Positions 16,948 through 58,557 are shown, counted from the stretch's first letter. The stretch: 64,000 bases of DNA from Acidimicrobiales bacterium (GCA_029263195.1 JAJCXX010000084.1:65713-129712); one strand, 5' to 3'. Translations and numbers: made by a program. The notes: generated by a model not told the origin, from the letters alone.

Positions 16948-16976
16948 CTCAACCTGTCTGGGGTGTTGGCCGATGG
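16948..16976 (+). promoter_or_regulatory. Sigma-28/WhiG-type promoter
   Basis: CTCAA-N16-GCCGATGG upstream of a GGDEF-EAL gene. Confidence 0.6.
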
Positions 16977-17076
16977 GTGGGGTATCTAGCGGGTGGTCTG
17001 GCTCGTGTGTTGGAAGGCGAGGTGTGATGTGAGATCGAGGGATTCAGGAGTCGAGCGTGGCAGTTTGCTGCCGACC

Positions 17077-19173
17077 ATGCAAGCTCGTCTGATTGCGGTG
17101 ATGGCGACGTTGTCGGTGTGCTTCTTGGCCGCTGTAGGGGTGATTACGTGGTCGATGCTCGGCATGGAGAGCAGTCTGTCGGCGATGGCGGCGCACACAA
17201 GTGAGGAAGTGGTTCCGGTTATGCATCTGGAGGGGGAGGTCCGCGAGACGGAGCTAGCGGGCTGGACGGCCTCCTTTGCGATCCAACAGGGTGCTCCGTC
17301 GTTCGTTCGCGGCGAGTACGACCGTGCCGCGGCCATTGCAAACGACACATTTGACTATCTCCGTGCTCAGGATGAGCACATCGTCGAGGAGCTGGCCCTG
17401 CTCCAAGCCGCTGAAGAGCATTGGCGTGTGGCGTTGGATGGGTTCGACTTCGCGATGGCTGGTGGCTTCTCCGATGCATTGGCGCTGGCCGACTACCTGG
17501 CTGGTGTCGGCGATGAGATCGATGCGGTGGTAGAGGCGCTTGACGGCGCACAAGAATCGGCGTTGTTCGAACAGGCCGAGGCAGCCGATGCGGCGACGGC
17601 CCGGAAGCGTTTGGCGTTGGGGTTGGCTGCCGTCACGTTGTTGGCCACGCTCGCGCTCATGTATTTGGTGACAAAGTTGTTGATGGGCGGGGCGGTAGCC
17701 GCGATCGTACGGCTGCGTGAAGCGGCCCAGCGGTTGGCCTCGGGCGAGTGGGGCCAGCACGTTGAGGTGAACGGTCCCTCGGAATTGGCAGAGTTGGGCA
17801 AGTCGTTCAACACCATGTCCGATCGACTCCGCCAGAGCCACAACGATCTCGAGCATCGGGCATTGCATGATCAGCTCACAGGGTTGGGAAACCGCACTCT
17901 CATGGCTGATCGAATCGAACACGGCGCCGCGACCCGCCAAGCCCAACGCCGTATCGACGCGCTCTTGGTGATCGATCTGGACCGCTTCAAAGACCTCAAC
18001 GACACCCGCGGCCATGCGTTGGGTGATCAAGCGCTCATCGAGGTGGCGAGACGACTGTGCCGATGTGTTCGCGATGTCGACACCGTGGCTCGTTTGGGTG
18101 GTGACGAGTTCGGGGTGCTGCTCGAAGGCCTCGACGGGTTGGCCGAAGCCGAGGACGTCGCTGAGCGCATCGTCACGGCGATATCGACGCCTCTGCGTCT
18201 CAGGGGCGCCGAGGTCACGGTCAGCGCCAGCGTGGGTATCGCGAATGCTGCCCAGGTGACGTCGACCACCGAACTGATCAGTGGCGCGGACCTGGCCATG
18301 TATGAAGCCAAACGCGCTGGCGGGTCGACCTGGCGACTGTTCGAAGAGGATCTACGCGTCGCGCTCGCGGACCGTGTCCAGATCGAAGCGGATCTGCGAA
18401 TCGCAATCACCGACAACAAGATCGACGTCGCCTACCAGGCTGTATATGACCTCGAATCCAACCAGCCCATCGGCGTAGAGACGCTGGCGCGGTGGACCCA
18501 CCCCACTCACGGCGTGGTCGGCCCCGCCCGGTTCATTCCCATCGCCGAGAACGCGGGCCTCATCGCTGAGCTCGGCTGGAACGTACTTCACCGGGCCTGT
18601 ACGCAGACCGGCATCTGGCGCTCCCACTACCCCCACCTCGACTCATTCACCGTCGCAGTCAACATCGCCGCCGCCCACCTCCAAGAGTCCGAGTTCGTTC
18701 CGCGGGTGCTCGACATCGTTGGTTGCGCAGGACTCGAACCAGCCAACCTGGTCCTCGAGATCACCGAAACCATGATGATCCAACGCGGATCAGACGCCCG
18801 CGAAAAGCTGCTTCAACTCCGCGAGCATGGTGTCAGCGTCTCCATCGACGACTTCGGCACCGGGTACTCGTCGCTGGCCCAACTACGCGACTACCCGGCC
18901 GACAGCCTCAAGATCGATCGAGGGTTCATCGCCGACGTCGATACAGACACCGACAAACAGGCCCTCACCCGAACGATCATCGAACTCGGCCTGAACCTCG
19001 GCCTTCCCTGCATCGCCGAAGGCATCGAAACCCCCGAAGAGTTTGCCACGCTCCGCGCCCTCAACTGTCAGTTCGCCCAAGGCTTCCTCTTCCACAAACC
19101 CAGCCCCGCAATCGAAACCGAAGCCCTGCTCGCCCTCCACACCTCCACCTCGACACGACCCGAGAGTGTCTGA
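17077..19173 (+). CDS. Membrane HAMP-GGDEF-EAL diguanylate cyclase/phosphodiesterase
   Basis: 2 TM, HAMP, HDQLTGLGNR, intact RLGGDEF, ETLARW, DDFGTGYSSL, KIDR, AEGIE; start codon uncertain. Confidence 0.92.
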   Translation: MQARLIAVMATLSVCFLAAVGVITWSMLGMESSLSAMAAHTSEEVVPVMHLEGEVRETELAGWTASFAIQQGAPSFVRGEYDRAAAIANDTFDYLRAQDEHIVEELALLQAAEEHWRVALDGFDFAMAGGFSDALALADYLAGVGDEIDAVVEALDGAQESALFEQAEAADAATARKRLALGLAAVTLLATLALMYLVTKLLMGGAVAAIVRLREAAQRLASGEWGQHVEVNGPSELAELGKSFNTMSDRLRQSHNDLEHRALHDQLTGLGNRTLMADRIEHGAATRQAQRRIDALLVIDLDRFKDLNDTRGHALGDQALIEVARRLCRCVRDVDTVARLGGDEFGVLLEGLDGLAEAEDVAERIVTAISTPLRLRGAEVTVSASVGIANAAQVTSTTELISGADLAMYEAKRAGGSTWRLFEEDLRVALADRVQIEADLRIAITDNKIDVAYQAVYDLESNQPIGVETLARWTHPTHGVVGPARFIPIAENAGLIAELGWNVLHRACTQTGIWRSHYPHLDSFTVAVNIAAAHLQESEFVPRVLDIVGCAGLEPANLVLEITETMMIQRGSDAREKLLQLREHGVSVSIDDFGTGYSSLAQLRDYPADSLKIDRGFIADVDTDTDKQALTRTIIELGLNLGLPCIAEGIETPEEFATLRALNCQFAQGFLFHKPSPAIETEALLALHTSTSTRPESV

Positions 19174-19196
19174 TCGGGGACTGGAATGTGGGAAGG

Positions 19197-20024
19197 TCAG
19201 CCAGCGGCTCGCAGGCCGTCGGTGGGGGAGAGGCGGGCGCCGGCGCCAATGACGAGAGCGGCGCCAGTTCCGGCCGCGATTGCGATGCGCGGGTTGATTG
19301 TCTCCCAGCTGCGGATTCGGGTGTAGATGTTGGTGGCGGCTACGCCAAGGGCCACGCCGCCGGCCTGCACGGTCAGGACATTGGTACCAAGGGAGTCGAG
19401 TTGGACCAGCAGCACGAGCCGGGAGGACTCAGAGAGTCCGAGCCAGTCGACCATGGCGGCGATACCGATCATGATGCCCAGCGCGGAGAGAATGGTTCGC
19501 ACCTTACGAGTTCGCATTCCGACCGCTACTCGTGGGCGTTCGCCACCATCGGGGAAACGAATAGTCAGAAACTCAAGCACGACGTCGTCCAATGGTCCGC
19601 CGTCGGCGAGAAAGCTCGCTCCGGTGAACGTCAGCACAACCGCGTTTGCCGGGGCTATCACCGGGTCGGTGTGGTCGTTGGCGATCGGATATGAGCGGGG
19701 CACTACACCTTCACGTGGCTGATAGCTGGTAGCTCCCGGGACGTGCTCGAGCCCCTCGGCATAGAACTCCAAATCGAGGGGAAGTCCGCAAGACGCGGCA
19801 CTGATGTTGGTCAATCTGATGCCGGTGAACATCTTTCCGCCGGCGCCGTCTCGGATGCCGAGGTCGGCCGACAAGTCAGAAGAGGTACACAATCGCAGGC
19901 CGTCGGGTGGTGCCGGCGCGGCGATGAGTGCCTGCTCCGCCAACTCTTGGGCACTCTCGTTCGAGCACCCTGTGAGGATGACTGTGGCCAACACCCCGCA
20001 CACCAACCAACGCCGCCACCGCAT
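19197..20024 (-). pseudogene. Chimeric ORF: DUF4232-like lipoprotein fused to an internally deleted MacB/FtsX-type ABC permease remnant
   Basis: Lipobox ILTGC; C-terminal part has LSALGIMIGIAAMV and LDSLGTNVLTV followed directly by ARLSPTDGLR. Confidence 0.5.
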
Positions 20025-20140
20025 CGTCCAACATTAGATCGCACCACCGCCGCCACAAGAGCCAGGTCTCGACTTCTTGGCATCTCGACGGCCCAGTTAG
20101 AGTCCATTCATCCGCTCCGGGCGAGATCAGGAGACTGCCG

Positions 20141-21446: not shown

Positions 21447-23600
21447 TCACCGGTGCGCCCGGGACCGTTCCCTTGCTCTGCGAGGAGAAGACGTGGCGCC
21501 CTGGAGCCAGCGTTGTTCGAACTCGTCGGCGGCAACGGCTTTCCCGAACCAGTAGCCCTGTGCGTTCGAGGCACCGAGCTCTTGAAGCGTGGTCGCGTCC
21601 TCTTCGGTTTCGACACCCTCAGCCACAACTATTCGGCCAAAGGCGGTTGACATCTGGATCACGGCCCCGACGAGCGAGCGAAGTTCCTCGAGGTCGGAGA
21701 TTCCGCTGACGAAGCTTCGGTCGATCTTAATGACGTCGACATCGAGTGTGTTCATGAGGTGCAGCGATGAGTAGCCAGTTCCGAAGTCGTCGAGGGCGAT
21801 GCTTATTCCGATATCTCGGAGATAGTGGAGCTTGCCGTCGATGGGCTGCTTGAACATCGCCGTCTCGGTCAGTTCGAGACAGAGGTGTTGTGGTGCTGCT
21901 CCGGAGCGCGCCAGTGCGGCTTCGATGTCGCCGACGAAGTTGGTGAGTGCGAGCTGGTGAGCGGAGACGTTCACTGAGATCCTGAATGCGTCGACACCGG
22001 CGAACTGGTTGCGCCATCGGGTCGAGTCCCGCAGCGCGATGTCGAGTACCTCCGCGCCGAGGGGGACGATGAGTCCGGTGTGTTCGGCGACATCGATGAA
22101 TTCGGCCGGTGAGAGTAGCCCTCGCTCGGGGTGGCGCCAGCGCACCAGCGCTTCGGCTCCGATGACTGTTCGGTGCTCGAGATCGACAATGGGCTGGTAG
22201 TGGACTTCGAACTGTCCGGTGTCGATGGCGCCTCGGAGGTCCTCGGCGATCTGATTTCGTCGGGTCGCGTCGTCGAGAAGGGTCTCCTTGAAGATCTCGC
22301 TCCGGTTGCCTCCTTCGGTCTTGGCGGCGTACATGGCAAGATCCGCTTGGCGAATCAGGTCCGCAGCGCTCTCGGTGCCGTCGATTGCCAATGCGATCCC
22401 GGCGCTCGCGGTGAGTTGTGTCGCGTGGCCTGCGATCTGGAGGGGCTTGTTGATTGCTGTGAGGAAGCGCTCGGCGAGCTCGGTTGATGCGGCCGTGGCG
22501 TTTGGTGCGACGATGACGAACTCGTCACCGTCGAGTCGACAGGCGGTGTCGGTCTCTCTCAGACACGATCGGATCCGCTCAGCAATGATCACGAGTGCTT
22601 CGTCTCCGCCGGAGTGCCCGAGGGCGTCATTGAGATCCTTGAATCGATCGAGATCCAACAAGATCACGGTGAATTGGTCAGCCGGTCGTCGGCGCAGTTG
22701 TGACATTGCAACGTCCAAGCATTGCTGAAGGGTGGCGCGGTTTCCGAGTCCGGTCAGTTGATCTTGGTAGGCGTGACGGGTGAGTGTGGCTTCACGATCG
22801 CGCAACGCGTCAGCCATCGAGTTGAACGACGACGCGACGTCTACGATTTCTGCCGGGCCCTGGAGCGCTACGAGGAAGCTCTGCTCTCCGTTGGCGATGC
22901 GAGTCGCTCCGACACGGAGTTCGTCCAGTGTCGCGGCCAGGCTCTGAGCCAGCTTCTCCATCAGGAGACCTGATGCGAATAGGCCAATCAATGCAACGGC
23001 GATCGCCAATCGCTCGGTGGTGCGGCGTTGGGACACGCCCTGTTCGGTCTCTTCGATGGATTCCAGGTGCGAGAGCTCCGCAGTTGTCTCAAGGTCGGCC
23101 GCGGCCGATGACATGGCATCAAAAGTATTCGCGATGTGAAGGTCGCGCGTGTCGAGATCCGGGGCACGGACCGCCAACGCGAGCTCCGAGCGGACTTGGG
23201 TCCACTCGTCGCGGGCCCGATTGAAGGTGACCAGCTCTGCGTCATCATGTACGTGCGATCCCACGGCCGCTAGTGCTGCATCAATCGCAGCGATCTCGGA
23301 CTCGAGCGACGACAGTTGGGCGGACAGCGTGGTTGCGGATTGGCTGGTCATGTTGGAGATGTCCGCCATAGTTCGGTTGATCGAAGATGCCGCCTTTAGG
23401 AGCGGAATCGTCTCGTCGACCTGTTCGTCGTGAGCCTTGTCAACCGTGGAGGCCGACGATCTCCCGCCCCACATCATCGCAGCGATGACGACAACCACCG
23501 ATACCAAAACGACGAAGCCGACGCCCCAGATGCGAGCTGTAACGGATCCGTTCCGCCAACGCGTGTGTCTGCTCGTAGTCGAGGTGGCCCGCGCTTCCAT
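21447..23600 (-). CDS. Membrane HAMP-GGDEF-EAL protein (DGDEF variant)
   Basis: 2 TM, HAMP, DQLTGLGNR, RLDGDEF, AEALVRW, DDFGTGYSSL, AEGVE. Confidence 0.92.
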   Translation of the reverse strand: MEARATSTTSRHTRWRNGSVTARIWGVGFVVLVSVVVVIAAMMWGGRSSASTVDKAHDEQVDETIPLLKAASSINRTMADISNMTSQSATTLSAQLSSLESEIAAIDAALAAVGSHVHDDAELVTFNRARDEWTQVRSELALAVRAPDLDTRDLHIANTFDAMSSAAADLETTAELSHLESIEETEQGVSQRRTTERLAIAVALIGLFASGLLMEKLAQSLAATLDELRVGATRIANGEQSFLVALQGPAEIVDVASSFNSMADALRDREATLTRHAYQDQLTGLGNRATLQQCLDVAMSQLRRRPADQFTVILLDLDRFKDLNDALGHSGGDEALVIIAERIRSCLRETDTACRLDGDEFVIVAPNATAASTELAERFLTAINKPLQIAGHATQLTASAGIALAIDGTESAADLIRQADLAMYAAKTEGGNRSEIFKETLLDDATRRNQIAEDLRGAIDTGQFEVHYQPIVDLEHRTVIGAEALVRWRHPERGLLSPAEFIDVAEHTGLIVPLGAEVLDIALRDSTRWRNQFAGVDAFRISVNVSAHQLALTNFVGDIEAALARSGAAPQHLCLELTETAMFKQPIDGKLHYLRDIGISIALDDFGTGYSSLHLMNTLDVDVIKIDRSFVSGISDLEELRSLVGAVIQMSTAFGRIVVAEGVETEEDATTLQELGASNAQGYWFGKAVAADEFEQRWLQGATSSPRRARERSRAHR

Positions 23601-23607
23601 GACGCTC

Positions 23608-23635
23608 AAGTCGGCATCTAGTCCGAAATATTGAG
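23608..23635 (-). promoter_or_regulatory. Sigma-28/WhiG-type promoter
   Basis: CTCAA-N15-GCCGAC; ATG at 23600 lies 9 nt past the -10 hexamer. Confidence 0.65.
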
Positions 23636-49361: not shown

Positions 49362-49652
49362 TCATTCGAGCGGGGGTGACACGCCATCCTCGCCATCCTC
49401 GCCATCGTCGACGACGGTGCCGAGGTCGATCGTGACGAACGGGTTCCTTGGATTGGATGGAGCTACCCACCTCTCGGCCTGAAAGGACGTCGGCTCGTCG
49501 AGATCGATCTCTTCGGCGACGTCATAGAAATCCTCGAACTCGGAATCTGACGATGAGCCGCCGACGTAGGGGCGAGCCAGAGTGAATACGGCCATCAGGG
49601 CAGTGATGGCGAGCGCGAGCAGGAGCTTCGAAGAGGGTCGTTGGGCGCTCAC
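49362..49652 (-). CDS. Small membrane-anchored protein at the pilP position
   Basis: N-terminal TM; RNPF motif (PilP-like RDPF); overlaps the pilO stop. Confidence 0.55.
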   Translation of the reverse strand: MSAQRPSSKLLLALAITALMAVFTLARPYVGGSSSDSEFEDFYDVAEEIDLDEPTSFQAERWVAPSNPRNPFVTIDLGTVVDDGEDGEDGVSPPLE

Positions 49653-50263
49653 TGTTCGCTCTCCGTGGGATCTGTGAAGTCTTCGAGGTCAGGTTCGGCC
49701 TCGGGCGTGAGGACCGCTGTGGTGAACACACGAAGCTCGAGGTCGAGAATGACCTGCTCCGATATCTCGTCGTCGACATTGAGATCGACCAGGTCGATCA
49801 GCACGAGGCGATCGAGAGCCGTCAACTCGTCGACGAAGGCCAGAAGCCCCGGGTATGTACCTACAGCCCCGATGCTGATCACGATGGACGAGGTGCCGAC
49901 CGGAAGTTCGGCGAGTTGATCGTCGACGTCGTCGTCTCCGCTCACGGCCAAGGGGGCGATCTGGTCAATCGTCACGCCGGCTCGGTTGCCGGCAATGCCG
50001 GCATCAGCGATGAAGACCCCGAGCTGAGACTCCGGTGGTATCGCGCTTTCGGTAGTGGCGATGCGCTGCTCGAACAGGTCGAGGTTCTCGTCGAGAAGCG
50101 AGGCTTCGTTCAACTCTGCGATCAGTTGTACGCGGTCGTCCTCGGCTTGCTGAAGTCTCGCTGCCTCCGTGCCGGACTGCGCTGGGATCCAGCTTGCTGC
50201 GAACCAGACGGAGAGCGTGAGGGCAGGGGCACCGACGAGCTGCATGATCGAACGGCCGGTCAT
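49649..50263 (-). CDS. pilO: Type IV pilus assembly protein PilO
   Basis: TM, coiled coil, IP..., GTY..LLAFVDEL..LDRLV. Confidence 0.75.
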   Translation of the reverse strand: MTGRSIMQLVGAPALTLSVWFAASWIPAQSGTEAARLQQAEDDRVQLIAELNEASLLDENLDLFEQRIATTESAIPPESQLGVFIADAGIAGNRAGVTIDQIAPLAVSGDDDVDDQLAELPVGTSSIVISIGAVGTYPGLLAFVDELTALDRLVLIDLVDLNVDDEISEQVILDLELRVFTTAVLTPEAEPDLEDFTDPTESEQ

Positions 50264-51966
50264 CGGAGTGGATCCAGTTCAATGACCGTCACGGCCGGCG
50301 TCACGACTGCTCCGTCGATGGTGAACACGGCAGCGGTCCTGTCTTCGCTGCTGTAGGGACCGGTGGCAGATTGCGCCAGCCAGAGCCCGGATAGAGATGG
50401 CACCTCCTCGACGGACTGCAACCAGCTGCCGACGCCGCCCAGGTCCTCAGTCACGCCTGTGACGCTCAGAATCGCTCCGGGCTGTGAGCCGTTGTAGCCA
50501 ATGGGGGACTCGCCTCGCTGGGCGCGTTGAATACGAAGAGACAGGAGGAACGAGTCCTGAGGGGCTGCCTCCGCCAGTTGCCGTATCACTGTCGTGAAGC
50601 CGTATTCCTGATTGAGTAGCTCGTTTACTCGATCGGTTTGTCGAGCCGCGGCGGCCTCTTGAGCTTGGTCATCGTCGAGAGCCGACAGATCGGTGCGGAG
50701 CTCCTCGACCACGCGCTCCACCGCCTCGGTGGATGTTCGAAGATTCTGGGCGTTGTCGCTGCGATCCATGGCGTTCGCCATCAGTACTGGTGACATGGCG
50801 ATGGCCACGGCCACTCCGGCACCGATGCGGGACATCCCGGCTCGTCGGTCGCGCACCACGGTCGGGACGAGATCGAAGGTACGGGCGGCGAGCGATGTCG
50901 TGGTGGCGGCGTGGGCCACCGCGAGTGCCTCGTCGAATTGTGAAGCATCGTCGGTGTCGGCTGGCCAGTGTTTGTGTTCGTGGCGCAGGATTTCGGCCTG
51001 TGGGAAAAGCTCCGCCAGATCTGAGGCCAAACTGCGGGATACCGACATGATGCCGCAGAGAGTGATCCGCCCGATCGTGCGAGTGTCAAGGTCCCCCTGG
51101 ACGTAGCGGAGAGTACGACGAATCCCTTCCACCACAGTGGCGCTGCTGGCCACAGCAGGGTCGATCGCTACCGAGTCGTGGCCGCTGTGGTCGTCGTTGC
51201 GTCCGAATTCTTCCAGGATGCTGAGTTCCTTCTGGAGTTCATCGGAGAGCGATGTGGACGAGGCACTGATGCCTGCGGTGACGACTCTGGTGAACAAGAT
51301 GCCGTCGTTGTCGTGCACAATTACGCTGGTGACCGTGGTTGACACGTCGACCAGCACCCCTATGGAGTCCTCAGGCAGCGGATTAGGGCGACTGATCGAC
51401 GACGTGAGAGCTGCCTGAGTCAACTCAATGGACTCGAGTCTCAGCCCGGCTGCCTTGACGGACTGTCGAAGGTCGAGAACGGTTTGCTGTCGGGTGGCGA
51501 GAATCAGGGACTGCACGGTTCCGGGCGACAGGCTCCCTTGGGATCCGATGTCCAGGACGGACACGAGAGCCTCGTCGATCGGGTAGCTCAGGAGATCGGC
51601 AATCTCGAACTCGGCGGCCTGCTGGATGCCTCTCTTGGCCTCCGGGGGGAAGATGGCACGCCGAATCACCGCGGCCCGAGCATCGAGACCCACGGCAATC
51701 CGCTTGGTGGAAAACCCGGCTTCACTCCATAGCTCACGAAGACAGTCTCGGAAGGCTCCGACGTCAGAGATCTCGCCCTGGTCGACGACGCCCGGCGGGA
51801 GATCGAAGGCGATTGCCTTGGTGACGACGTCATTGGATGGCCGTCCAAGTCGGCCCGCGGGCGCGAGTTCGACGGCCCGGATTGTCTGGTCGTCGAACGC
51901 GACTCCGACTGTGCGCCTAGACATGGCCGTCGGCTTTCGCGCCCACGAGGCGAATTGTTGTCGCAT
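50260..51966 (-). CDS. Fused PilM-PilN type IV pilus alignment protein
   Basis: PilM-like VGVAFD..IRAVEL, LPPGVVDQGEI, AAGL; then FDLVP (PilN INLLP-like), TM, coiled coil and PilN-like domain in one ORF. Confidence 0.75.
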   Translation of the reverse strand: MRQQFASWARKPTAMSRRTVGVAFDDQTIRAVELAPAGRLGRPSNDVVTKAIAFDLPPGVVDQGEISDVGAFRDCLRELWSEAGFSTKRIAVGLDARAAVIRRAIFPPEAKRGIQQAAEFEIADLLSYPIDEALVSVLDIGSQGSLSPGTVQSLILATRQQTVLDLRQSVKAAGLRLESIELTQAALTSSISRPNPLPEDSIGVLVDVSTTVTSVIVHDNDGILFTRVVTAGISASSTSLSDELQKELSILEEFGRNDDHSGHDSVAIDPAVASSATVVEGIRRTLRYVQGDLDTRTIGRITLCGIMSVSRSLASDLAELFPQAEILRHEHKHWPADTDDASQFDEALAVAHAATTTSLAARTFDLVPTVVRDRRAGMSRIGAGVAVAIAMSPVLMANAMDRSDNAQNLRTSTEAVERVVEELRTDLSALDDDQAQEAAAARQTDRVNELLNQEYGFTTVIRQLAEAAPQDSFLLSLRIQRAQRGESPIGYNGSQPGAILSVTGVTEDLGGVGSWLQSVEEVPSLSGLWLAQSATGPYSSEDRTAAVFTIDGAVVTPAVTVIELDPLR

Positions 51967-51988: not shown

Positions 51989-52016
51989 CCATCGGATCAC
52001 CGGTGATGGGCTTGAG
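51989..52016 (-). promoter_or_regulatory. Sigma-28/WhiG-type promoter for pilMN-pilO
   Basis: CTCAA-N15-TCCGATGG. Confidence 0.7.
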
Positions 52017-52032: not shown

Positions 52033-52060
52033 CTCACCCTGAACAGGAAATAGCCGATGG
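52033..52060 (+). promoter_or_regulatory. Sigma-28/WhiG-type promoter for the minor pilin operon
   Basis: CTCAC-N15-GCCGATGG. Confidence 0.7.
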
Positions 52061-52068
52061 TCACGGTG

Positions 52069-52572
52069 ATGAACCCCACGTCCGCCTCTCGCGCGTCGAA
52101 GCAACTTGAACGCGGCGCCACGATCGTGGAGATGATCGTGGCCACCATGTTGTTGGCAATCGCGGTATTGGCCGCGGCGACAGCCATGGGGGCCGCGACC
52201 AAGACAGCCGCCGTGGCCGAACATCGAAGCGTGGCCGCCCGTCTCGCCACCAGTGAAGTCGAGTCGATTCGCTCGCGCCCCTACGGTCTGATTGGAATCG
52301 ATCCAGCCACCAGGGGGTACAAGCCGCGCTTCGAGGGGCGACCGACAGTGTCCGGGCGCGATCATGTGCTGAAGCCAACCGGAACCGTGAGCGTGGGCGG
52401 AGTCGACTACCGGATTGAGCGCCACGTGACGTGGTCGCCAATCACGGTCGGAGGTTCGACCTCCGCTGAAGGGTTCAAGATCATCACGATCATCGTCGCC
52501 TGGGACGACACCGGCGGGCCACACGAAGTACGTCAGGACACGGGGATCTTTCGTCATGATGACGATGACTGA
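52069..52572 (+). CDS. Minor pilin (PilV-like)
   Basis: Class III signal ERG/ATIVEMIVA; RLATSEVESIRS. Confidence 0.75.
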   Translation: MNPTSASRASKQLERGATIVEMIVATMLLAIAVLAAATAMGAATKTAAVAEHRSVAARLATSEVESIRSRPYGLIGIDPATRGYKPRFEGRPTVSGRDHVLKPTGTVSVGGVDYRIERHVTWSPITVGGSTSAEGFKIITIIVAWDDTGGPHEVRQDTGIFRHDDDD

Positions 52573-53146
52573 CCACGAGCGCGGAACCACCATCATCGAG
52601 ATGCTGGTCGTGTTGTCGATGTCGGCGCTGTTGGCCGTTCCGCTGCTGGGTGTCGTTCAGAGTGCAACTCGGATCGAGGAGGACCAGATCACGCGAATCG
52701 ATGTTCGGTCCAAGCTTGATAGGGCCCTCACCGAGATCTCCGATGACATTCGTCTTTCGGTGCCGAACGCAGATCTGGTTTCATCGTCGAGTCTCGGACA
52801 TACGCTACCTCTCTCGGCGAACGCGGCCGATGGCAGCCAGACGCTCACGCTCTGGGTGGTGGGGGCCGACGGGCTGGAGCGTGTCGTCCACGACGCCGCG
52901 ACCTTGCGAGAGACACAACGCTCGGTGTTCGTGGCTGAGGTGGTTCCCGTGGCCGGTATGCCTTCGTTCTCGTACTTCGACTCCGACGGAGATGAGCTTC
53001 AACCCAGAACCACACCGATCGACACGCTCGTCAACTGCACGGCGCTTATCAGGGTGACGCTCGCAGCCGATGCGGGGAGCAAGATCGTGACGTCCTCCGT
53101 CGACGTGGCGCTGCGCTCGAGAGAGCCTGGAGGGAACGGATGCTGA
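52565..53146 (+). CDS. Minor pilin (PilW-like)
   Basis: ERG/TTIIEMLVV; EISDDIR; FSYFD. Confidence 0.75.
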   Translation: MTDHERGTTIIEMLVVLSMSALLAVPLLGVVQSATRIEEDQITRIDVRSKLDRALTEISDDIRLSVPNADLVSSSSLGHTLPLSANAADGSQTLTLWVVGADGLERVVHDAATLRETQRSVFVAEVVPVAGMPSFSYFDSDGDELQPRTTPIDTLVNCTALIRVTLAADAGSKIVTSSVDVALRSREPGGNGC

Positions 53147-54195
53147 ACCGCCGTGGGTTGAGAGATCCCGAGAGTGGCAGTGTTGTCCTGGCCCTTCTGG
53201 TGATGATGGTGGTGACCCTTTTGGGCATCGCCGTTCTCTCGGAATCGCAACGTGCTCTTGGTGGAAGTCGCCGCGACACCGATGAGGGGCGAGCCCTCGC
53301 ATCGGCTGAACTCGCAGTGAACGAGGCATTCGCCCGCATAGATGCTGGCGAGGTGTCACATTTCGCTGGCGCTGGCGCCTTCGACAATGCCGACTACAGC
53401 TTCGATGCCCAGCCGGCAGGCCGTTCGACATGGGACATACAGGCTCGCGCCACATCCGGTGACACAACTCGAGCCTTCACCGCAACGGTCAGCCGGGAGG
53501 CACTCTTCTCCTACACGCTGTTCGCCACCTCAAGCATCGAGATCAACCGCAACACCGGCCGGATCAGGGGACGAGTCGGCACCAACGGATCGATGGATAT
53601 CACGGGACCGGCCCCCGGCGACGTGCAGGAGCTCTATCTACCCGACGGAATCTGCTCCGGCTGTACTGACCCGGTCACTCTCGACGGACCTCGCGCCGTT
53701 CCTTCGGTGGAGTTTCCGGACGGTTCGACCCAGGAATGTCCTGAAGACGGGCTGTTCGAGGAGGACGTCGACGGCCGGTCGGGAATTCCCTACATCTGCG
53801 ACGATTCCTTCGACGAGGTTGTCTTCGAGGGAGAGGTGAGAATTCTGAATCCCCCTCTGATCGTCTATGTAGACGAGGGTGTGGATGTCGAGTTGGACGA
53901 AGCCACTGTGGTGCCGCCTGGCCGGGCGTCTGGGTTCCAGCTGTTCGTGGCGAGCGAGGACGATGATGACGATGAGTCGATATCAGCCTCCGAGGCCGAG
54001 ATCAAGGGCCTGATTTTCGCGCCGGGACGGTCTCTTCGCACCGACGACTTCGATCTGACCGGCTCGATCACTCTGCGAAGCTTGGAAGTGCCTCGAAGGG
54101 GGGACGTGTCGATATTGGCCGATGTCTCACTCCTGACCTTGGGCGACGGTTCGTGGCGCCTGGTCGATCTTCGGTCGGTTCCGCCCAAGGCGTGA
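53140..54195 (+). CDS. Minor pilin (PilX-like)
   Basis: ESG/SVVLALLVMMVV lacking E5; RALASAE; beta-rich C-terminus with GLIFAP. Confidence 0.7.
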   Translation: MLNRRGLRDPESGSVVLALLVMMVVTLLGIAVLSESQRALGGSRRDTDEGRALASAELAVNEAFARIDAGEVSHFAGAGAFDNADYSFDAQPAGRSTWDIQARATSGDTTRAFTATVSREALFSYTLFATSSIEINRNTGRIRGRVGTNGSMDITGPAPGDVQELYLPDGICSGCTDPVTLDGPRAVPSVEFPDGSTQECPEDGLFEEDVDGRSGIPYICDDSFDEVVFEGEVRILNPPLIVYVDEGVDVELDEATVVPPGRASGFQLFVASEDDDDDESISASEAEIKGLIFAPGRSLRTDDFDLTGSITLRSLEVPRRGDVSILADVSLLTLGDGSWRLVDLRSVPPKA

Positions 54196-54214: not shown

Positions 54215-55930
54215 TCAGGTGATGACCCGGAACAGCTCCTCCACCGTGGTCAATCCCGTCTTCACTTTCCGAAGCCCGTCGGCCCGCAGGGTGATCATTC
54301 CCTGCTGAATGGCCAGACGTTCGACCTCCTCGACCCGTGCGTGCGAGAGGACCAGTTCGGAGATCTCTTCCGACATCGACAGGACTTCGTGAATGGCGAA
54401 CCGGCCCCGGTAGCCGGTACCGCTGCAGGAATCGCATCCAACAGTAGCGAAGCCCTCGAAGGATTCGCTCGATCTGAGGTCCTCCGGGAGCGCCGCAATG
54501 CCTGCGTCCTTCAGGCCAAGATGTTCGAGCCGGATCTCCTTGGGTACCTTGCACTTCTCACAGAGCTTGCGTGCCAATCGCTGAGCCAAGACCGCCGAGA
54601 GCGAGGAAGAGACCAAGAATGGCTCGACTCCCATCTCGATGAGCCGCATCGGAGCGGACGCGCTGTTGTTGGTGTGAAGAGTCGAGAGTACGAGGTGACC
54701 GGTGAGGGCCGCCTCCACGGCAGTGGTGGCGGTCTCACCGTCGCGAATTTCGCCGATGAGCATGACATCAGGATCGGCCCGCAGGAAGGATCGGAGCGCC
54801 CGAGCGAATGTCATGCCGGTCTTCTCGTTGACCTGGACCTGCTTGATGCCGTCCATTCGATACTCGACGGGATCCTCGATAGTGATGATGTTGCGTGTCG
54901 GGTCTCGTAGTTCCTCGAGAGTGGCGTACAGCGTCGTGGATTTGCCCGACCCGGTGGGTCCGGTGACCAGAATCGCTCCCCAGGGCTGCTCGTAGGCGTC
55001 CCGATAGCGAGCCAGCTGGTCGGGGAGGAATCCGATTCCGCCGATGCCCCCACCATGCGTGCCGCCCCTCAGGAGTCTGAGAACGGCAGCCTCTCCATGG
55101 ATTGTTGGAATGGTCACGACCCGCACGTCGTAGTCGACATTGTTGACGCTGGCCGTGAGGCGTCCGTCCTGGGGCACCCGACGCTCCGCGATGTCCATCT
55201 CGGCCATGACCTTGATTCGGCTGATGATCCCGGCGCGGAGAGAACGTGGGGGTGACATTGCTTCATGCAACACGCCGTCGACTCGGAATCGAATACGAAG
55301 ATCATCAGAAGTCGGCTCCACGTGGATATCCGACGCATCCTCCTGTATCGCCTTGGCAAGCAGTAGGTCGATGAATTGAACGATCGGGGCCTTGCTCCGA
55401 TCACTACTCGGCGACGTGGTGATGGGCGCCGCGGCATCCTTGCGCTCTCCGACGGCGGCCTGGATGGTCTCCAACACTCGGTTGTCGCTGTGTCCAAGTT
55501 GGCCTATGGCGGCCGTGATCTGTGCAGCCTCCGCCATTACAGGCACGACCTGGCGACCTACGAGCGATCGAATGTCGTCGAGGGCGAGAACGTCCGCTGG
55601 ATTGACCATGGCTACGACTATCTGGCGGCCATCTCTCCAGACCGGTAGCGCACGATGTCGGGTTGCCAGCTGTTGGGGAATTGCCTGGGCAAGTTCAATG
55701 TCGATCGGCCGATCGTTGAGATCGACGAACGGAAGATCGAACTGCACTGCCAAGGCCCGCACGAGATCTCGTGACTTGACCAAACCCTGGTCGAGGAGGA
55801 CCTCGCCGAGTCTCTTGCCGGTTGAGCGTTGAAGTTCCAGCGCGCTCGAAATGTCGGATTCGTTGACAATATTCAGCTCGACGAGGATCTCGCCGATTCT
55901 TCGGCGTGTTGCGACAGCGATCTGGCTCAT
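54215..55930 (-). CDS. pilB: Type IV pilus assembly ATPase PilB with N-terminal MshEN domain
   Basis: RIGEIL..Q and RLGEVL..GLV..L..Q; ASDIH, GPTGSGKST, EDPVEY, LRADPD, TGHLV, CEKC/CDSC. Confidence 0.93.
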   Translation of the reverse strand: MSQIAVATRRRIGEILVELNIVNESDISSALELQRSTGKRLGEVLLDQGLVKSRDLVRALAVQFDLPFVDLNDRPIDIELAQAIPQQLATRHRALPVWRDGRQIVVAMVNPADVLALDDIRSLVGRQVVPVMAEAAQITAAIGQLGHSDNRVLETIQAAVGERKDAAAPITTSPSSDRSKAPIVQFIDLLLAKAIQEDASDIHVEPTSDDLRIRFRVDGVLHEAMSPPRSLRAGIISRIKVMAEMDIAERRVPQDGRLTASVNNVDYDVRVVTIPTIHGEAAVLRLLRGGTHGGGIGGIGFLPDQLARYRDAYEQPWGAILVTGPTGSGKSTTLYATLEELRDPTRNIITIEDPVEYRMDGIKQVQVNEKTGMTFARALRSFLRADPDVMLIGEIRDGETATTAVEAALTGHLVLSTLHTNNSASAPMRLIEMGVEPFLVSSSLSAVLAQRLARKLCEKCKVPKEIRLEHLGLKDAGIAALPEDLRSSESFEGFATVGCDSCSGTGYRGRFAIHEVLSMSEEISELVLSHARVEEVERLAIQQGMITLRADGLRKVKTGLTTVEELFRVIT

Positions 55931-55937
55931 GAATCTG

Positions 55938-55965
55938 TAATCGGCCGCATGGTGCATGTTGTGAG
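55938..55965 (-). promoter_or_regulatory. Sigma-28/WhiG-type promoter for pilB
   Basis: CTCAC-N15-GCCGATTA; ATG 9 nt past the hexamer. Confidence 0.7.
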
Positions 55966-56012
55966 ACATCTGTTCGGCATCGTGACTCTCGGACCCGCCG
56001 GGAAACGATGCG

Positions 56013-56040
56013 CTCAAGATGGCGATGCTGCGTCCGACTC
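56013..56040 (+). promoter_or_regulatory. Sigma-28/WhiG-type promoter for pilT-pilC
   Basis: CTCAA-N15-TCCGAC; GTG 9 nt past the hexamer. Confidence 0.7.
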
Positions 56041-56047
56041 TGAACAT

Positions 56048-57208
56048 GTGGAAGCTGAACTAAACACCGACTGGAACGACCTCGACGATGACAGCCGAGA
56101 CTTTCTCGCTGGCGCTCTCATGGAAGGTGACACCCAAGGAGGCGACCGACTCGGCGAGCTACTTGATGCGGCGGTATCTGCCGGAGCGTCGGATCTTCAC
56201 CTGAGCGCCGGGCACGCCCCCCACATTCGAGTCTCGGGCGATCTGAGACCTCTGGCCGGATCGGAACTCTTCTCGGAGCGCGAACTCAATGAGATCCTCA
56301 CAGGCGCCCTGTCCGTTGATCAACGAGCCACTCTTGAATCTGCCGGTGATCTGGACACAGCGCTCAGCCTCGGTGCCAGCGGCGACGGCCGACGGTTTCG
56401 GGCCAGCTTCTTCCGGCAATCAGGATCCCTCGCGGCCGCGATACGAGTTGTGCCTTCGAGAATCCCTGCACTTGCCGATCTGGGTCTGCCGCCCCTGGTT
56501 GATCAGTTCGCTCAACTCCGAAGTGGTCTCGTGCTGGTCACCGGCCCCACCGGTTCTGGAAAGTCCACAACTCTCGCTTCGATGATCGAGCAGATCAATC
56601 AGACCCGGTCGGCTCACATCATCACCATTGAAGATCCGGTGGAGTACCGGTATTCACCAGTCATGTCCGTTGTCCAGCAGCGGGAGGTCGGGCCCGACAC
56701 GAAGTCATTCGTCACGGCGCTGCGTTCCGCCCTCCGGCAGGACCCTGATGTCGTTCTGATCGGCGAGCTCAGAGATCTCGAAACCATTCGGATCGCCCTA
56801 ACGGCAGCGGAGACTGGCCACGTCGTGTACGCGACCCTTCACAGTTCGGATGCCACCAGCTCGGTCAATCGCATCATCGACGTGTTCCCGGCCGATCAGC
56901 AAAGCCAGATTCGCTCGCAGTTGGCTCTTTCGATCGAGGGTTGTATCAGTCAACGACTCCTCACCGCCCGTGATGGCTCGCTCGTACCGGCCACCGAGGC
57001 AATGGTGGCGACCACCGCCATCAGGAATCTGATCCGAGTTGACAAGGTCCATCAGTTGAAGTCCGTCCTGGAAATGGGCGGAGCTGAAGGCATGCACACG
57101 TTCGATCAATCGCTCGCCGGCTTGGTCCGTCGAGGGCGCCTCGACATTCAGGTTGCAATGACGGTGGCCGACAACACGAAGAACTTGGAAGCGCTGGTGA
57201 GAGCATGA
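56048..57208 (+). CDS. pilT: Type IV pilus retraction ATPase PilT
   Basis: ASDLHL, GPTGSGKSTT, QREVG, ALRQDPD, AAETGH and the PilT-specific AIRNLIR; start uncertain. Confidence 0.93.
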   Translation: MEAELNTDWNDLDDDSRDFLAGALMEGDTQGGDRLGELLDAAVSAGASDLHLSAGHAPHIRVSGDLRPLAGSELFSERELNEILTGALSVDQRATLESAGDLDTALSLGASGDGRRFRASFFRQSGSLAAAIRVVPSRIPALADLGLPPLVDQFAQLRSGLVLVTGPTGSGKSTTLASMIEQINQTRSAHIITIEDPVEYRYSPVMSVVQQREVGPDTKSFVTALRSALRQDPDVVLIGELRDLETIRIALTAAETGHVVYATLHSSDATSSVNRIIDVFPADQQSQIRSQLALSIEGCISQRLLTARDGSLVPATEAMVATTAIRNLIRVDKVHQLKSVLEMGGAEGMHTFDQSLAGLVRRGRLDIQVAMTVADNTKNLEALVRA

Positions 57209-58515
57209 GAGCGCTCTCGGTTCGCTCCTCGACCCGCCGTCAGGGGCAGGGTCCGACTCGGCCACGCGACGCCGCGCGGACTCCAGCGAGTCGCCGACCC
57301 CGCACTTACCGCTACAAGGCGATTTCGGCAGATGGTTCGGTCCTGGCCGGGGACGTGGAAGGCGATTCCGAGTCCGATGCCGCTGCTCGAATCCGTCGAC
57401 TGGGGCTTCGTCCCATGTCGGTCCGCAAGTCGCATTCGGCCAATCTCGGCAAAGAGATGTCCATCCCGGGATTCAGAGCGAAGGTGAAGGGCGGGGATCT
57501 CGCTGTTGTGGCGCGCCAGTTCGCGACCATGGTCAACGCGGGGGTACCTCTCCTTCGGGCCTTGGCGGTGCTGAGAGATCAGTCCGACAACGCGCTGCTG
57601 AGCGCGACGTTGGAACGAATGAGGGCAGATGTCGAAGGCGGTGACTCACTCAGCGACGCGATCAGCCGCCATCCCCGCGTCTTCGATCGCCTCTTCGTGT
57701 CGATGATTCGGTCAGGAGAGGCCGCCGGAGCGCTGGATGTCGTTCTGATGCAGATGGCCACGACGCTGGAACGATCGGTCGCAATGCGTCAGAAGATCCG
57801 GTCTGCTCTGGCATACCCGATTGCGGTGCTGTTCATGGTTACGGGAGTGATCATCGCGATGCTCGCGTTCGTAGTACCGGCATTTGCTGGGATCTACGAC
57901 GACCTCGGTGGAACGCTGCCACTGCCGACCAGGGTCCTGGTTGCGGTGTCTGATCTGTTCACGCAACGACTTCCGCTGGTGATCGTTCTGATTGTGGTGA
58001 CCGTGGTGGGGGTACGGAGTTGGAAGCGCACCGAGTCGGGGCAGCTGCGCTGGGACTCGATCAAGCTACGGCTGCCGCTGGTCGGCGATCTGCTTCTCAA
58101 AAGCAGCATGGCCCGATTCGGGAGAACCATGTCGGTTCTCACAAAGTCCGGAGTACCGGTACTGGAGACTCTCAGGATCACCTCAGAGACCCTCGGCAAC
58201 GCGGTTCTTTCGCGCTCGTTGCTCGATGCACGTGACGCGGTGCGCCGAGGGGAGGAGATTGCTCCGAATCTGGCGAAGAACAGTCTGTTCCCGGCGATGG
58301 TCGTGCAGCTGGTAACAGTCGGCGAGGAGGCTGGAGCGCTCGACGAGATGTTCGACACGATCGGCCGCACCTACGAGCAAGAGGTCGAGACGGCGGTCGC
58401 CGGCTTTGCCGCTCTGATCGAACCGTTGATGATGGCATTCATCGGGGTGGTCGTCGGCGGAATGGTTGTTGCTCTGTATCTCCCGATGTTCAGGGTGATT
58501 GATCTCGTGCAGTGA
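57205..58515 (+). CDS. pilC: Type IV pilus platform protein PilC (T2SS F family)
   Basis: RQFATMVNAGVPL, GEAAG.L, ALAYP, IEP, ALYLPMF. Confidence 0.93.
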   Translation: MRALSVRSSTRRQGQGPTRPRDAARTPASRRPRTYRYKAISADGSVLAGDVEGDSESDAAARIRRLGLRPMSVRKSHSANLGKEMSIPGFRAKVKGGDLAVVARQFATMVNAGVPLLRALAVLRDQSDNALLSATLERMRADVEGGDSLSDAISRHPRVFDRLFVSMIRSGEAAGALDVVLMQMATTLERSVAMRQKIRSALAYPIAVLFMVTGVIIAMLAFVVPAFAGIYDDLGGTLPLPTRVLVAVSDLFTQRLPLVIVLIVVTVVGVRSWKRTESGQLRWDSIKLRLPLVGDLLLKSSMARFGRTMSVLTKSGVPVLETLRITSETLGNAVLSRSLLDARDAVRRGEEIAPNLAKNSLFPAMVVQLVTVGEEAGALDEMFDTIGRTYEQEVETAVAGFAALIEPLMMAFIGVVVGGMVVALYLPMFRVIDLVQ

Positions 58516-58529
58516 CCTGGCGCCAAACC

Positions 58530-58557
58530 CTCACCTGCGCGGTGACTCGTCCGACAG
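58530..58557 (+). promoter_or_regulatory. Sigma-28/WhiG-type promoter for pilA
   Basis: CTCAC-N15-TCCGACAG. Confidence 0.7.

Follow-up and report, generated by a model that had tools for sequence, protein, structure and literature searches.

In an Acidimicrobiales genome, one alternative-sigma-factor motif, a predicted promoter, stands before each of the five type IV pilus transcription units. Two GGDEF-EAL genes are preceded by the same motif, bringing to seven the sites found in the window, i.e., the whole 64,000-nucleotide stretch analysed (GCA_029263195.1 JAJCXX010000084.1:65713-129712). The explanation that best accounts for the whole, and which is held with good confidence, is that a factor of the sigma-28 family reads the seven sites as genuine promoters, within a regulon of about 40-50 promoters, the likeliest driver being a WhiG2-type sigma encoded on contig C23 and presumably gated by RsiG and c-di-GMP. 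The evidence consists of the enrichment, spacing, orientation and conservation of the motif, together with the proteins encoded and the conservation of their residues.

Seven sites in the window

A sequence-only reading had placed the motif upstream of five type IV pilus units and two GGDEF-EAL genes. Pattern search retrieves all seven sites where they had been located (Table 1), and Pfam confirms the identities of most of the genes. CTCAM-N15-KCCGAY has exactly six matches in the window (all promoters of Table 1 except the first), against a chance expectation of 0.59 on average, and six matches are reached in none of 100 dinucleotide-preserving shuffles of the window. The N16 version (CTCA-N17-GCCGA) has two matches, the first promoter of Table 1 and an extra one at 52844-52870 (+), within a minor-pilin coding frame; these two alone are not significant, because 16 of 100 shuffles reach two. 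Genome-wide, this version forms a second real spacer class. With a weight matrix built from 38 sites, all outside contig C84, the seven window sites score 14.2-21.4 bits, and 14.2 bits or more are attained at only 176 of ~14.5 million scored positions. Matrix counts that include the training sites are partly circular.

Table 1. Predicted promoters and genes of the window, counted from its first nucleotide; bits refer to the weight matrix
Feature	Position	Strand	Basis and remarks
Predicted sigma-28/WhiG-type promoter of HAMP-GGDEF-EAL gene 1, CTCA-N17-GCCGA-T	16948..16974	+	Pattern match; 21.4 bits
HAMP-GGDEF-EAL gene 1	16993..19173	+	Pfam; ORF opens at GTG 16993, gene call begins at ATG 17077
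Predicted WhiG-type promoter of HAMP-GGDEF-EAL gene 2, CTCA-N16-GCCGA-C	23610..23635	-	Pattern match; 21.3 bits; ATG 23600 9 nt past hexamer
HAMP-GGDEF-EAL gene 2	21447..23600	-	Pfam
Predicted WhiG-type promoter of pilMN-pilO, -10 TCCGAT	51991..52016	-	Pattern match; 16.8 bits; earliest possible start ATG 51966, 24 nt past hexamer
pilMN fusion	50260-51966	-	Pfam PilM_2
pilO	49649-50263	-	Pfam PilO
Small ORF downstream of pilO	49362-49652	-	Gene call; unit spans 49362..51966
Predicted WhiG-type promoter of three minor-pilin genes	52033..52058	+	Pattern match; 18.8 bits
Three pilin-like genes	52057/52066-52572, 52556-53146, 53140-54195	+	ORFs
Predicted WhiG-type promoter of pilB	55940..55965	-	Pattern match; 18.6 bits; ATG 55930 9 nt past hexamer (leaderless arrangement)
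pilB extension ATPase	54215..55930	-	Pfam T2SSE (444 bits), MshEN
Predicted WhiG-type promoter of pilT-pilC, -10 TCCGAC	56013..56038	+	Pattern match; 14.2 bits
pilT	56048-57208	+	Pfam T2SSE
pilC	57205-58515	+	Pfam T2SSF; 4-nt overlap with pilT
Predicted WhiG-type promoter of pilA	58530..58555	+	Pattern match; 19.4 bits
pilA major pilin	58610..59107	+	Pfam N_methyl

Start codons had been noted 9-10 nt past the hexamer in four cases. This distance stands for pilB and GGDEF-EAL gene 2 (ATG, 9 nt), for the minor pilin (ATG, 10 nt) and for pilT (9 nt), but the pilT start is the in-frame GTG 56048 and not the nearby ATG. The latter (ATG 56046) was rejected as out of frame when the frame was checked by hand. 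The minor pilin, with an N-terminus reading ...ERGATIVEMIV, has two start candidates, GTG 52066, at 7 nt from the hexamer, and ATG 52069, at 10 nt, and a further ATG at 52057 that overlaps the hexamer. Two of the three pilin-like genes are without a Pfam match, the remaining one matching DUF7305 weakly. A predicted leader of ~45 nt with a AGGAGAGAG ribosome-binding site precedes pilA.

According to motif searches by regular expression, HAMP-GGDEF-EAL gene 1 possesses GGDEF with an I-site, and DDFGTG. In gene 2, the same type of search for a canonical GG(D/E)EF returned none, and EAL, DDFGTG and EGVE are present, a combination pointing to a probable phosphodiesterase. Right beside pilA, a GGDEF-EAL gene (59178-61256) is without an exact site, its best score being 2.8.

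The motif in the genome and in related genomes

In the non-coding DNA of the MAG (3.63 Mb), as delimited by a crude gene caller of our own, CTCA-Nx-GCCGA is found at 24 sites for x=16 and 22 for x=17, versus 3-8 for each of the other 12 spacers between x=10 and 23. A same-strand gene start is faced within 200 bp by 21 (x=16) and 16 (x=17) of them, versus 1-3 at other spacers. Once the window is excluded, 22 and 21 GCCGA sites are left, respectively. This non-coding peak at the two spacers only, facing gene starts, places the motif above the background of intergenic DNA.

The consensus was also approached de novo. Upstream of 1433 non-coding GCCGA sites, strong positional enrichment is confined to the 4-mers TCAA (spacers 15 and 16), CTCA (16 and 17) and CAAG. 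A single-base scan of the -35 box yields 46 occurrences of CTCA versus 11.7 for the control, with smaller excesses for GTCA (23 versus 13.3) and CTAA (5 versus 1.3). GCCGA is followed by T/C and next by nGG instead of TAA. Written in the classical way, the consensus becomes (C)T(C/A)A(A/C)-N15/16-(G/T)CCGA(T/C). The traits of a sigma-28 promoter class are found in T(C)AA/TCAC-N15/16-GCCGA(T/C), i.e., a TAAA-like -35, a GCCGA -10 and a spacer peak at these two lengths only. The CTCA box is the TCAA variant of TAAA. It had been proposed to be lineage-specific, which does not hold, since Actinoplanes already has a CTCA consensus and the promoter of a sigma-28 paralog alternates between CTCAAG and CTAAAG in relatives (see below). 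The first ATG or GTG of a long ORF lies 8-13 nt after GCCGA at 19/58 sites, compared with 15/348 shifted anchors; judged from this geometry only, about one third of the promoters appear to make leaderless mRNAs.

The enrichment expected before pil and GGDEF genes is observed genome-wide: besides the pilus units, 7/20 GGDEF genes bear the motif, versus 43/3383 called genes (Fisher p 2e-9), and the exact site is absent from the other 13 of the 20. Pfam identifies GGDEF and/or EAL targets on contigs C41, C59, C69, C77 and C82, in addition to the two of the window. Targets also include three Tad/Flp units, namely cpaB-cpaE-cpaF (C16), flp (C61) and tadE-tadE-tadG (C68), as well as three SLH proteins of the envelope and several regulators, i.e., the sigma-28 paralog (C3), an ECF sigma, and OmpR-type and LuxR-type response regulators (Pfam). 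The background is estimated at ~5 non-coding GCCGA sites per spacer, of which ~2 face a gene, so that a share of the 43 target genes is probably due to chance, candidates being those for gamma-glutamyltranspeptidase, BacA, a HAD hydrolase and ferredoxin.

Conservation was assessed in the 10 closest Acidimicrobiales pil loci. Upstream of pilB, the strict pattern (CTCA-N16-GCCGA, then ATG after 9-13 nt) is found in 8/10 loci, and in 9/10 when ACCGA is allowed. With a relaxed pattern, an upstream site is found for pilT in 8/10 and for pilA in 7/10 loci, and an orthologous one for the minor pilin in 7/10 and for pilMN in 3/10. At the pilB, pilT and pilA sites, both boxes are kept across related MAGs and the spacer sequence has diverged. 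The pilT start reads GTG GAA/GAT in the four loci inspected.

Sigma factors, RsiG and rival explanations

A sigma-28 family gene had been anticipated elsewhere in the genome. TIGR02479 (FliA_WhiG) is matched twice above its curated cut-off, with 270 bits at C23:41370-42041 and with 202 bits at C3:5206-5868, and an RsiG homolog is also present. The C23 sigma, of WhiG2 type, aligns to Streptomyces venezuelae WhiG (6pfj_A) with 318 bits and retains all seven of the contacts described for WhiG2, K57, G61 and R62 with c-di-GMP, and T235, L236, E240 and L242 with RsiG (S. venezuelae numbering; PMC13595943). The RsiG homolog (C94:20326-20853), of the twin-motif (monomer-type) form, matches S. venezuelae RsiG (6pfj_T) over its full length (E 4e-12). 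The c-di-GMP motif of RsiG, E-x3-S-x2-R-x3-Q-x3-D, is borne by helix 1 and, in twin-motif forms, by helix 5 as well. Here motif 1 is exact in 12/12 orthologs and motif 2 reads E-x3-S-x2-R-x3-H-x3-D in 12/12, a His replacing the canonical Gln. A model of WhiG with two c-di-GMP and RsiG scores 0.90 (best control 0.00), a result that may stem from a like complex already being solved, and that shows likeness rather than binding. The runs have at least 79% contact agreement and a partner pLDDT of at least 87; in calibration, the mark is reached by 58/80 solved complexes and 2/110 mismatched pairs. Within the order, the sigma is found in 30/41 and RsiG in 27/41 genomes; both are absent from ten family genomes, five of which were tested for PilB and lack it too (this query). 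These co-occurrence counts overstate independence, because related genomes are kin.

The second match belongs to a 316-residue paralog (gene C3:5026-5976) with housekeeping neighbours near gyrA. It keeps K57 and E240, the other five contacts being changed (G61F, R62Q, T235I, L236G, L242R), a lack of conservation that is a WhiG1 trait. Beyond the order, its top matches do not exceed 49% identity. The WhiG1 clade of Denis et al. tracks flagellar clusters (PMC13595943); in contrast, the paralog resides in a genome (94.6% complete) where FHIPEP (FlhA) and Flagellin_N were sought and gave no match.

The proposal that a WhiG-like sigma drives a pilus and c-di-GMP regulon is supported, all runnable refutation tests being favourable, and the interpretation given by the sequence-only reading is largely right. 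A sigma-28 (FliA/WhiG) factor would read the seven window promoters in a non-flagellated Acidimicrobiales genome. Its regulon would comprise the five type IV pilus units, the three Tad/Flp units, at least 7 of the 20 GGDEF/EAL genes, several SLH-domain envelope proteins, and regulators including the sigma-28 paralog. By analogy with Streptomyces and Rubrobacter, high c-di-GMP would lead to sequestration of the WhiG2-type sigma by the twin-motif RsiG, and low c-di-GMP to its release. Pili and the enzymes of c-di-GMP turnover would be switched together, with feedback. We infer which sigma reads the sites, its control by c-di-GMP and the transcription start points.

The sites are not assignable to the RsiG-controlled sigma, because two sigma-28 paralogs coexist and WhiG1- and WhiG2-type sigmas recognise similar promoters (PMC13595943). 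The promoters might be read mainly or only by the C3 paralog, without RsiG/c-di-GMP control, WhiG2 being at most upstream and transcribing the paralog in a two-tier cascade. The loss of five of the seven contacts favours this, as does the paralog's own promoter (CTCAAG-N..-GCCGAAAC), among the clearest sites, ~95 nt upstream. Before its orthologs, the exact pattern is kept in 6/20 loci, own genome counted, and, on inspection, 8 more family loci have the CTAAAG variant in this position. Furthermore, the paralog accompanies the WhiG2-type sigma in most relatives (two matches per genome). Against it, no two promoter sub-classes can be separated by sequence, a single -35 signal emerging de novo; the paralog's promoter is equally compatible with autoregulation; and a lone WhiG2 drives the pil genes of Rubrobacter (PMC8325347). 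This alternative is considered unlikely.

A further reading, put forward tentatively and considered rather improbable, is a wiring of the two sigma-28 copies in series in non-flagellated Acidimicrobiales, the WhiG2 gated by c-di-GMP and RsiG transcribing the RsiG-insensitive paralog. Jointly, they might switch on type IVa and Tad/Flp pili, SLH proteins and about half of the c-di-GMP enzymes, mostly by way of leaderless mRNAs. If true, the ancestral flagellar sigma would have been retained in two copies, the paralog being transcribed from a deeply conserved sigma-28 promoter, and the outcome would be a feed-forward latch built into a "developmental" programme of surface attachment.

Another factor binding the motif is highly improbable, whether the ECF sigma at C8:11940-12470 or a dimeric regulator using the boxes as half-sites. 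ECF sigmas are commonly autoregulated, CTCA-N16-GCCGA lies 14 nt ahead of the C8 gene start, and two response regulators are among the targets. However, the boxes differ from each other and are not palindromic, and are therefore not half-sites. The strict gene-ward orientation and the fixed 8-13 nt to start codons are promoter-like, not operator-like. ECF promoters typically show an AAC/CGT pattern, unlike the GCCGA -10 and T(C/A)AA -35 with a 15-16 nt spacer, which correspond to the quoted FliA/WhiG consensus, and the TCAA/TAAA exchange at an orthologous promoter favours a FliA/WhiG reading. Finally, a chance or compositional pattern picked post hoc from seven intergenic regions can be practically discarded: the pattern was indeed defined post hoc and, coding DNA included, its whole-genome N16 count (103) does not stand out from those of same-phase spacers (88-111), but the non-coding spacer peak is sharp and mostly outside the window, all seven sites obtain high scores with the matrix derived outside C84, and other genomes conserve them.

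Comparison with known systems

Phylum-wide predictions of WhiG1/WhiG2 regulons have been reported by Denis et al. (bioRxiv 10.64898/2026.01.14.699351; mSystems 2026, PMC13595943). Their predicted targets (PMC13595943) include c-di-GMP enzymes, more widespread than any other class, WhiG itself and other sigma factors, response regulators and type IV pilus genes; these classes are shared with the regulon considered here. In the main text, pilus targets are given only for Cellulomonadaceae, Cryptosporangiaceae, Sanguibacteraceae, Rubrobacteraceae and Jonesiaceae (PMC13595943). The main texts hold no mention of "Acidimicrob", "Flp", "Tad" or "leaderless"; the supplementary tables may list Acidimicrobiales targets. 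The -35 reported for WhiG2 is T(A/C)AA, in the consensus form T(A/C)AA-N16-GCCGATAA (bioRxiv 10.64898/2026.01.14.699351).

In Actinoplanes missouriensis, FliA-family sigmas transcribe the flagellar genes of zoospores as well as type IV pilus genes (according to PMC8325347 and PMC13595943). Transcription of pil genes by the sigma-28 family is thus a shared trait, and so are the -35 CTCA, the N16-17 spacer and the -10 GCCGA, the consensus reported for Actinoplanes WhiG1 being CTCA-N16-17-GCCGAACT (bioRxiv 10.64898/2026.01.14.699351). Actinoplanes is flagellated, sporangium-forming and without RsiG, whereas the present genome has RsiG and no flagella.

The (RsiG)2-(c-di-GMP)2-WhiG system of Rubrobacter radiotolerans, by which type IV pili and DGC/PDE genes are controlled, is alike in associating a WhiG2-type sigma and RsiG in a unicellular, non-sporulating actinobacterium (PMC8325347). 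Its WhiG promoters precede three pil units and five DGC/PDE genes (Schumacher et al. 2021, PMC8325347). In both systems, sigma-28-type promoters lie inside the type IV pilus cluster and upstream of several GGDEF/EAL genes, of which one is linked to that cluster, and a c-di-GMP feedback loop is predicted. The differences from the published Rubrobacter account are several (PMC8325347). RsiG is here of the twin-motif form with His in motif 2, versus a single-motif homodimer; the -35 is TCAA/TCAC, versus TAAA; the site precedes five of five pil units, versus three, and also three Tad/Flp units; and a second, RsiG-insensitive sigma-28 paralog is itself a target. Rubrobacter starts were mapped by Cappable-seq, whereas those here are predicted from sequence. 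The system adds to the known WhiG–RsiG–c-di-GMP kind, and extends the Rubrobacter switch to a new lineage, with an uncultured Acidimicrobiales bacterium.

Motif statistics and start-codon geometry

The seven sites of the window share a two-box motif, CTCAM-N15-KCCGAY (or N16), written CTCA-N16/17-GCCGA when the -35 box is counted as CTCA. They precede pilMN, the minor pilins, pilB, pilT, pilA, and the GGDEF-EAL genes at 23600 and 17077, and the six N15 sites and one N16 site all lie exactly where the sequence-only reading had placed them. The N16 form is not significant alone in the window, and its second match, which falls in a coding frame, is probably due to chance.

The genome (3.63 Mb in 106 contigs, 63% G+C, 94.6% complete), in which the window spans C84:65713-129712, has its nearest PilB loci in Acidimicrobiales/Acidimicrobiia MAGs, at 64-83% identity, and the four DNA runs with the window stretch are biofilm metagenomes from a single study. 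Spacer counts over the entire genome without a coding mask give no peak because codon periodicity dominates, and they were therefore repeated on non-coding DNA, delimited by rough gene calls of our own (3383 genes, 92% coding; pilB over-extended). There, CTCA-Nx-GCCGA is found 24 times at x = 16 and 22 times at x = 17, versus 3-8 times at each of 12 other spacers (x = 10-23). Of these, 21 and 16, respectively, face the start of a same-strand gene no more than 200 bp away, versus 1-3 at other spacers. The motif is thus not at background frequency: non-coding counts peak only at these two spacers, and mostly outside the window (22 and 21 sites). Upstream of 1433 non-coding GCCGA, the only strongly position-specific 4-mers obtained de novo are TCAA, CTCA, and CAAG, at these same spacings. 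Single-base changes in CTCA abolish the excess (46 vs. a control of 11.7), smaller residues being left for GTCA and CTAA. With a weight matrix trained on 38 sites, all outside the contig of the window (C84), the seven window sites score 14.2-21.4 bits, and only 176 of ~14.5 million positions reach at least 14.2. Flank preferences are weak: T before GCCGA, and T/C after it, followed by nGG.

A start codon 9-10 nt past the hexamer, claimed for four window genes, is borne out by pilB, by the first minor pilin, and by the GGDEF-EAL gene that starts at 23600. In pilT, the neighbouring ATG (56046) does not match the reading frame, which opens with the GTG at 56048, 9 nt past the hexamer. Over 58 sites, including those of pilB and pilT entered by hand, the first ATG/GTG to open a frame of 80 codons or more comes 8-13 nt past GCCGA in 19 cases (mode 9-10), versus 15 of 348 control anchors shifted by 15-40 nt. 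In the SLH-domain gene of contig C80, this distance is 10 nt. Such a fixed spacing is what promoters of leaderless mRNAs would predict.

Downstream genes and conservation

Genome-wide, an exact CTCA-N16/17-KCCGA lies within 200 bp of 43 called genes (see table); pilB and pilT come on top, as the gene caller masked their sites. The association with pil and GGDEF genes proposed by the sequence-only reading holds: 7 of the 20 GGDEF genes above the Pfam cut-off carry an exact site, versus 43 of all 3383 genes (Fisher p 2e-9). CTAA-type sites, with the canonical TAA, stand ahead of two further GGDEF genes, on C15 and at a contig end on C68. The GGDEF/EAL targets are mixed: some have a GGDEF domain only, with GG(D/E)EF and an I-site, others are hybrids that carry both signatures, and the 23600 gene has intact EAL signatures and no canonical GG(D/E)EF. 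Enzymes that make c-di-GMP and enzymes that degrade it are therefore both among the targets. The GGDEF genes of C32, C1, and C8 have a common upstream arrangement, CTTGA(T)-N15/16-GCCGAT, which may be a weaker promoter variant or a different promoter. The Tad/Flp system is split across three loci, with the same promoter motif ahead of each.

Features considered, with their locations (unlabelled coordinates are window positions; C-numbers are contigs of the same genome)
Feature	Location	Strand	Site ahead	Basis or remark
PilM fusion with PilO downstream	window		yes	Pfam
Three pilin-like genes	window			Pfam search; two of three without Pfam match
PilB, PilT-PilC, PilA	window			Pfam
Three HAMP-GGDEF-EAL genes	window			Pfam
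First minor pilin	52057-52140 (5' part)	+	yes	
Second N16 match, CTCAC-N16-GCCGAC	52844-52870	+		within second minor-pilin coding frame
Third HAMP-GGDEF-EAL gene	59178-61256	-		convergent to and beside pilA
GGDEF and/or EAL proteins	C41, C59, C69, C77, C82, and two in window		yes	Pfam
PAS fragment	contig end		yes	Pfam
cpaB-cpaE-cpaF	C16:651-4374	-	yes	Pfam
flp pilin	C61:53928-54110	-	yes	Pfam
tadE-tadE-tadG	C68:132104-134768	+	yes	Pfam
Three SLH-domain proteins, one fused to SpoIID	C39:214-996, C59:64525-65394, C80:19059-21095		yes	Pfam
ECF sigma	C8		yes	Pfam
OmpR-type response regulator			yes	Pfam
LuxR-type response regulator			yes	Pfam
DUF4388 protein			yes	Pfam
A dozen unannotated or unrelated genes			yes	Pfam
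Sigma-28 paralog	C3:5026-5976	-	yes	Pfam; near gyrA and a DUF3566 gene
WhiG2-type sigma	C23:41343-42119	-		begins ~40 nt past the stop of a tyrosine-recombinase-like ORF
rsiG	C94:20326-20853	-		RsiG-motif regex; comes after a MoaD/ThiS-like ORF

Two pilus-cluster genes deserve a comment. The first minor pilin bears a TadE-like signal, …ERGATIVEMIV, despite the PilB/PilT/PilC/PilM cluster around it. The third HAMP-GGDEF-EAL gene has a weak GGDEF domain (50.8 bits, no GG(D/E)EF) and intact EAL signatures; no WhiG-type site was found upstream of it (best matrix score 2.8), and its position beside pilA is reminiscent of the pil-linked DGC/PDE genes of Rubrobacter.

In the ten closest loci of related genomes (L077-L086), the strict pattern, CTCA-N16-GCCGA, is present at pilB in eight; a ninth has ACCGA, and the tenth (L083) has no synteny at pilB. 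With a relaxed pattern, [CT]TCA-N16/17-[GTA]CCGA, picked after variants were seen and counted at gene 5' ends only, sites are found in eight loci for pilT, seven for pilA, seven for the first minor pilin, and three for pilMN. The strict pilB site of the relatives lies ~35 nt upstream of the ATG, with GCCGA 9-13 nt from the start and diverged spacers. At L084, pilC is divergent from pilB and also has a site. The pilT start is GTG GAA/GAT in the four loci inspected, matching the window. The strict motif also occurs 80-100 nt before the pilB match in four Thermoleophilia loci.

The promoter of the sigma-28 paralog is kept across the family, with the exact pattern in 6 of 20 loci and, by inspection, CTAAAG-N..-GCCGAA at the same place in eight more (L165-L169, L172-L174). 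TCAA and TAAA thus interchange at one orthologous promoter. The -35 box had been taken as lineage-specific, a claim that does not survive this swap; CTCA-N16-17-GCCGAACT is, moreover, already quoted for Actinoplanes WhiG1, and T(A/C)AA-N16-GCCGATAA for WhiG2, in the bioRxiv version of a phylum-wide study (Denis et al., 10.64898/2026.01.14.699351; PMC13595943). Judged from these sequences, the CTCA box is a variant of TAAA and no invention of the lineage. Canonical TAAA-N15/16-GCCGA was rejected as a separate class, as it turns up just 3 and 4 times genome-wide.

Sigma factors, RsiG, and the reading of the sites

As anticipated, the genome encodes sigma-28 factors, two genes being above the FliA_WhiG cut-off. 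The C23 sigma (258 aa) scores 318 bits against Streptomyces venezuelae WhiG and retains all seven contacts listed in PMC13595943, with c-di-GMP (K57, G61, R62) and with RsiG (T235, L236, E240, L242). No WhiG-type site was seen upstream of this whiG. The C3 paralog, of 316 aa and extended at its C-terminus, scores 157 bits; of the seven contacts it retains only K57 and E240, with Phe at the G61 position, where any side chain is reported to clash with c-di-GMP. Its orthologs (L162-L181; 59-96% identity) occur in 19 of 40 related genomes searched, and a phylum-wide search with it is positive in 101 of 301 genomes, including the unpublished G041, G213, and G265, on which no conclusion is based; matches outside the order have at most 49% identity. 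FlhA and flagellin were not found in the genome.

The expected rsiG is also present, as one small protein. This RsiG homolog is of the twin-motif form; its alignment with S. venezuelae RsiG spans the full length (E 4e-12), and that with Rubrobacter RsiG chains covers helix 1. Among 12 family orthologs (L182-L193), motif 1 is canonical in all, and motif 2, E-x3-S-x2-R-x3-H-x3-D, with His replacing the canonical Gln, is invariant. No exact site precedes rsiG; a one-mismatch CTCC-N17-GCCGA, 20 nt upstream of the ATG, was left uncounted. A complex model of the C23 sigma, two c-di-GMP, and RsiG scores 0.90 versus 0.00 for the best control (contact agreement at least 79%, partner pLDDT at least 87), with a mark that 58 of the 80 solved complexes attain, as do 2 of the 110 mismatched pairs; since a like complex has already been solved, this result indicates likeness and not binding.

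A search of 41 genomes of the order, this one among them, gave sigma-28 matches to the paralog query in 30, mostly two each, and RsiG in 27. Both are unmatched in ten same-family genomes from five sister genera (G007, G009-G011, G013, G017, G019-G022; mostly closed, at least 92% complete), and no PilB match was obtained in the five of these tested. This suggests that sigma-28, RsiG, and PilB are lost or gained as one block, a co-occurrence that is supportive only, as related genomes are not independent.

The sites are most probably read by a sigma of the sigma-28 family. At low c-di-GMP, RsiG would let go of the WhiG2-type sigma, which would then transcribe both pilus systems, envelope proteins, regulators, and the paralog. 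It would also transcribe the mixed cyclases and phosphodiesterases, thereby feeding back on c-di-GMP. The main rival is a cascade in which the RsiG-insensitive C3 paralog is the direct driver; it is rather unlikely, and it draws on the similar promoters reported for the WhiG1 and WhiG2 clades (PMC13595943) and on the fact that no feature was found that splits the sites between the two sigmas. Two promoter sub-classes, defined by spacer or -10 variant, were considered and rejected: there is one -35 signal only, and GCCGAA sites are too few. An ECF sigma or an operator reading fits poorly and is very improbable, the fixed distance to the start codon being hard to square with an operator. Chance also fits poorly and is extremely improbable. 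The window holds six exact N15 matches versus 0.59 expected, a number that none of 100 dinucleotide-preserving shuffles attains.

Comparison with known WhiG systems

In Rubrobacter, WhiG promoters are reported ahead of three pil units and five DGC/PDE genes (PMC8325347), and a twin-motif RsiG has been reported in three of four Acidimicrobiales species. The phylum-wide study (PMC13595943) has pili and c-di-GMP enzymes among its predicted targets, alongside regulators and WhiG itself; its main text makes no mention of Acidimicrobiia, Flp/Tad, or leaderless starts, and its supplementary tables may hold such targets. A literature search on Acidimicrobiia and WhiG returned no further paper. RsiG was already known in the class, and no regulon for the class was found in the literature searched. 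New here are the lineage, sites ahead of every one of the five pil units, targets of the Tad/Flp and SLH kinds, a predicted link from one sigma to another in the absence of flagella, and the start-codon spacing of the leaderless type. The analysis also provides ~40 testable candidate promoters for an uncultured biofilm organism, and the sharp 10-nt start-codon spacing offers a predictor of leaderless genes in such genomes that needs sequence only. The known paradigm is unchanged by these results, and the predicted regulon gains Tad/Flp pili, SLH envelope proteins, and the link between sigmas. WhiG–RsiG–c-di-GMP control of pili is thereby extended, as a prediction, from Rubrobacter to Acidimicrobiales, which suggests that pilus control as an output of this switch may be widespread and perhaps ancestral.
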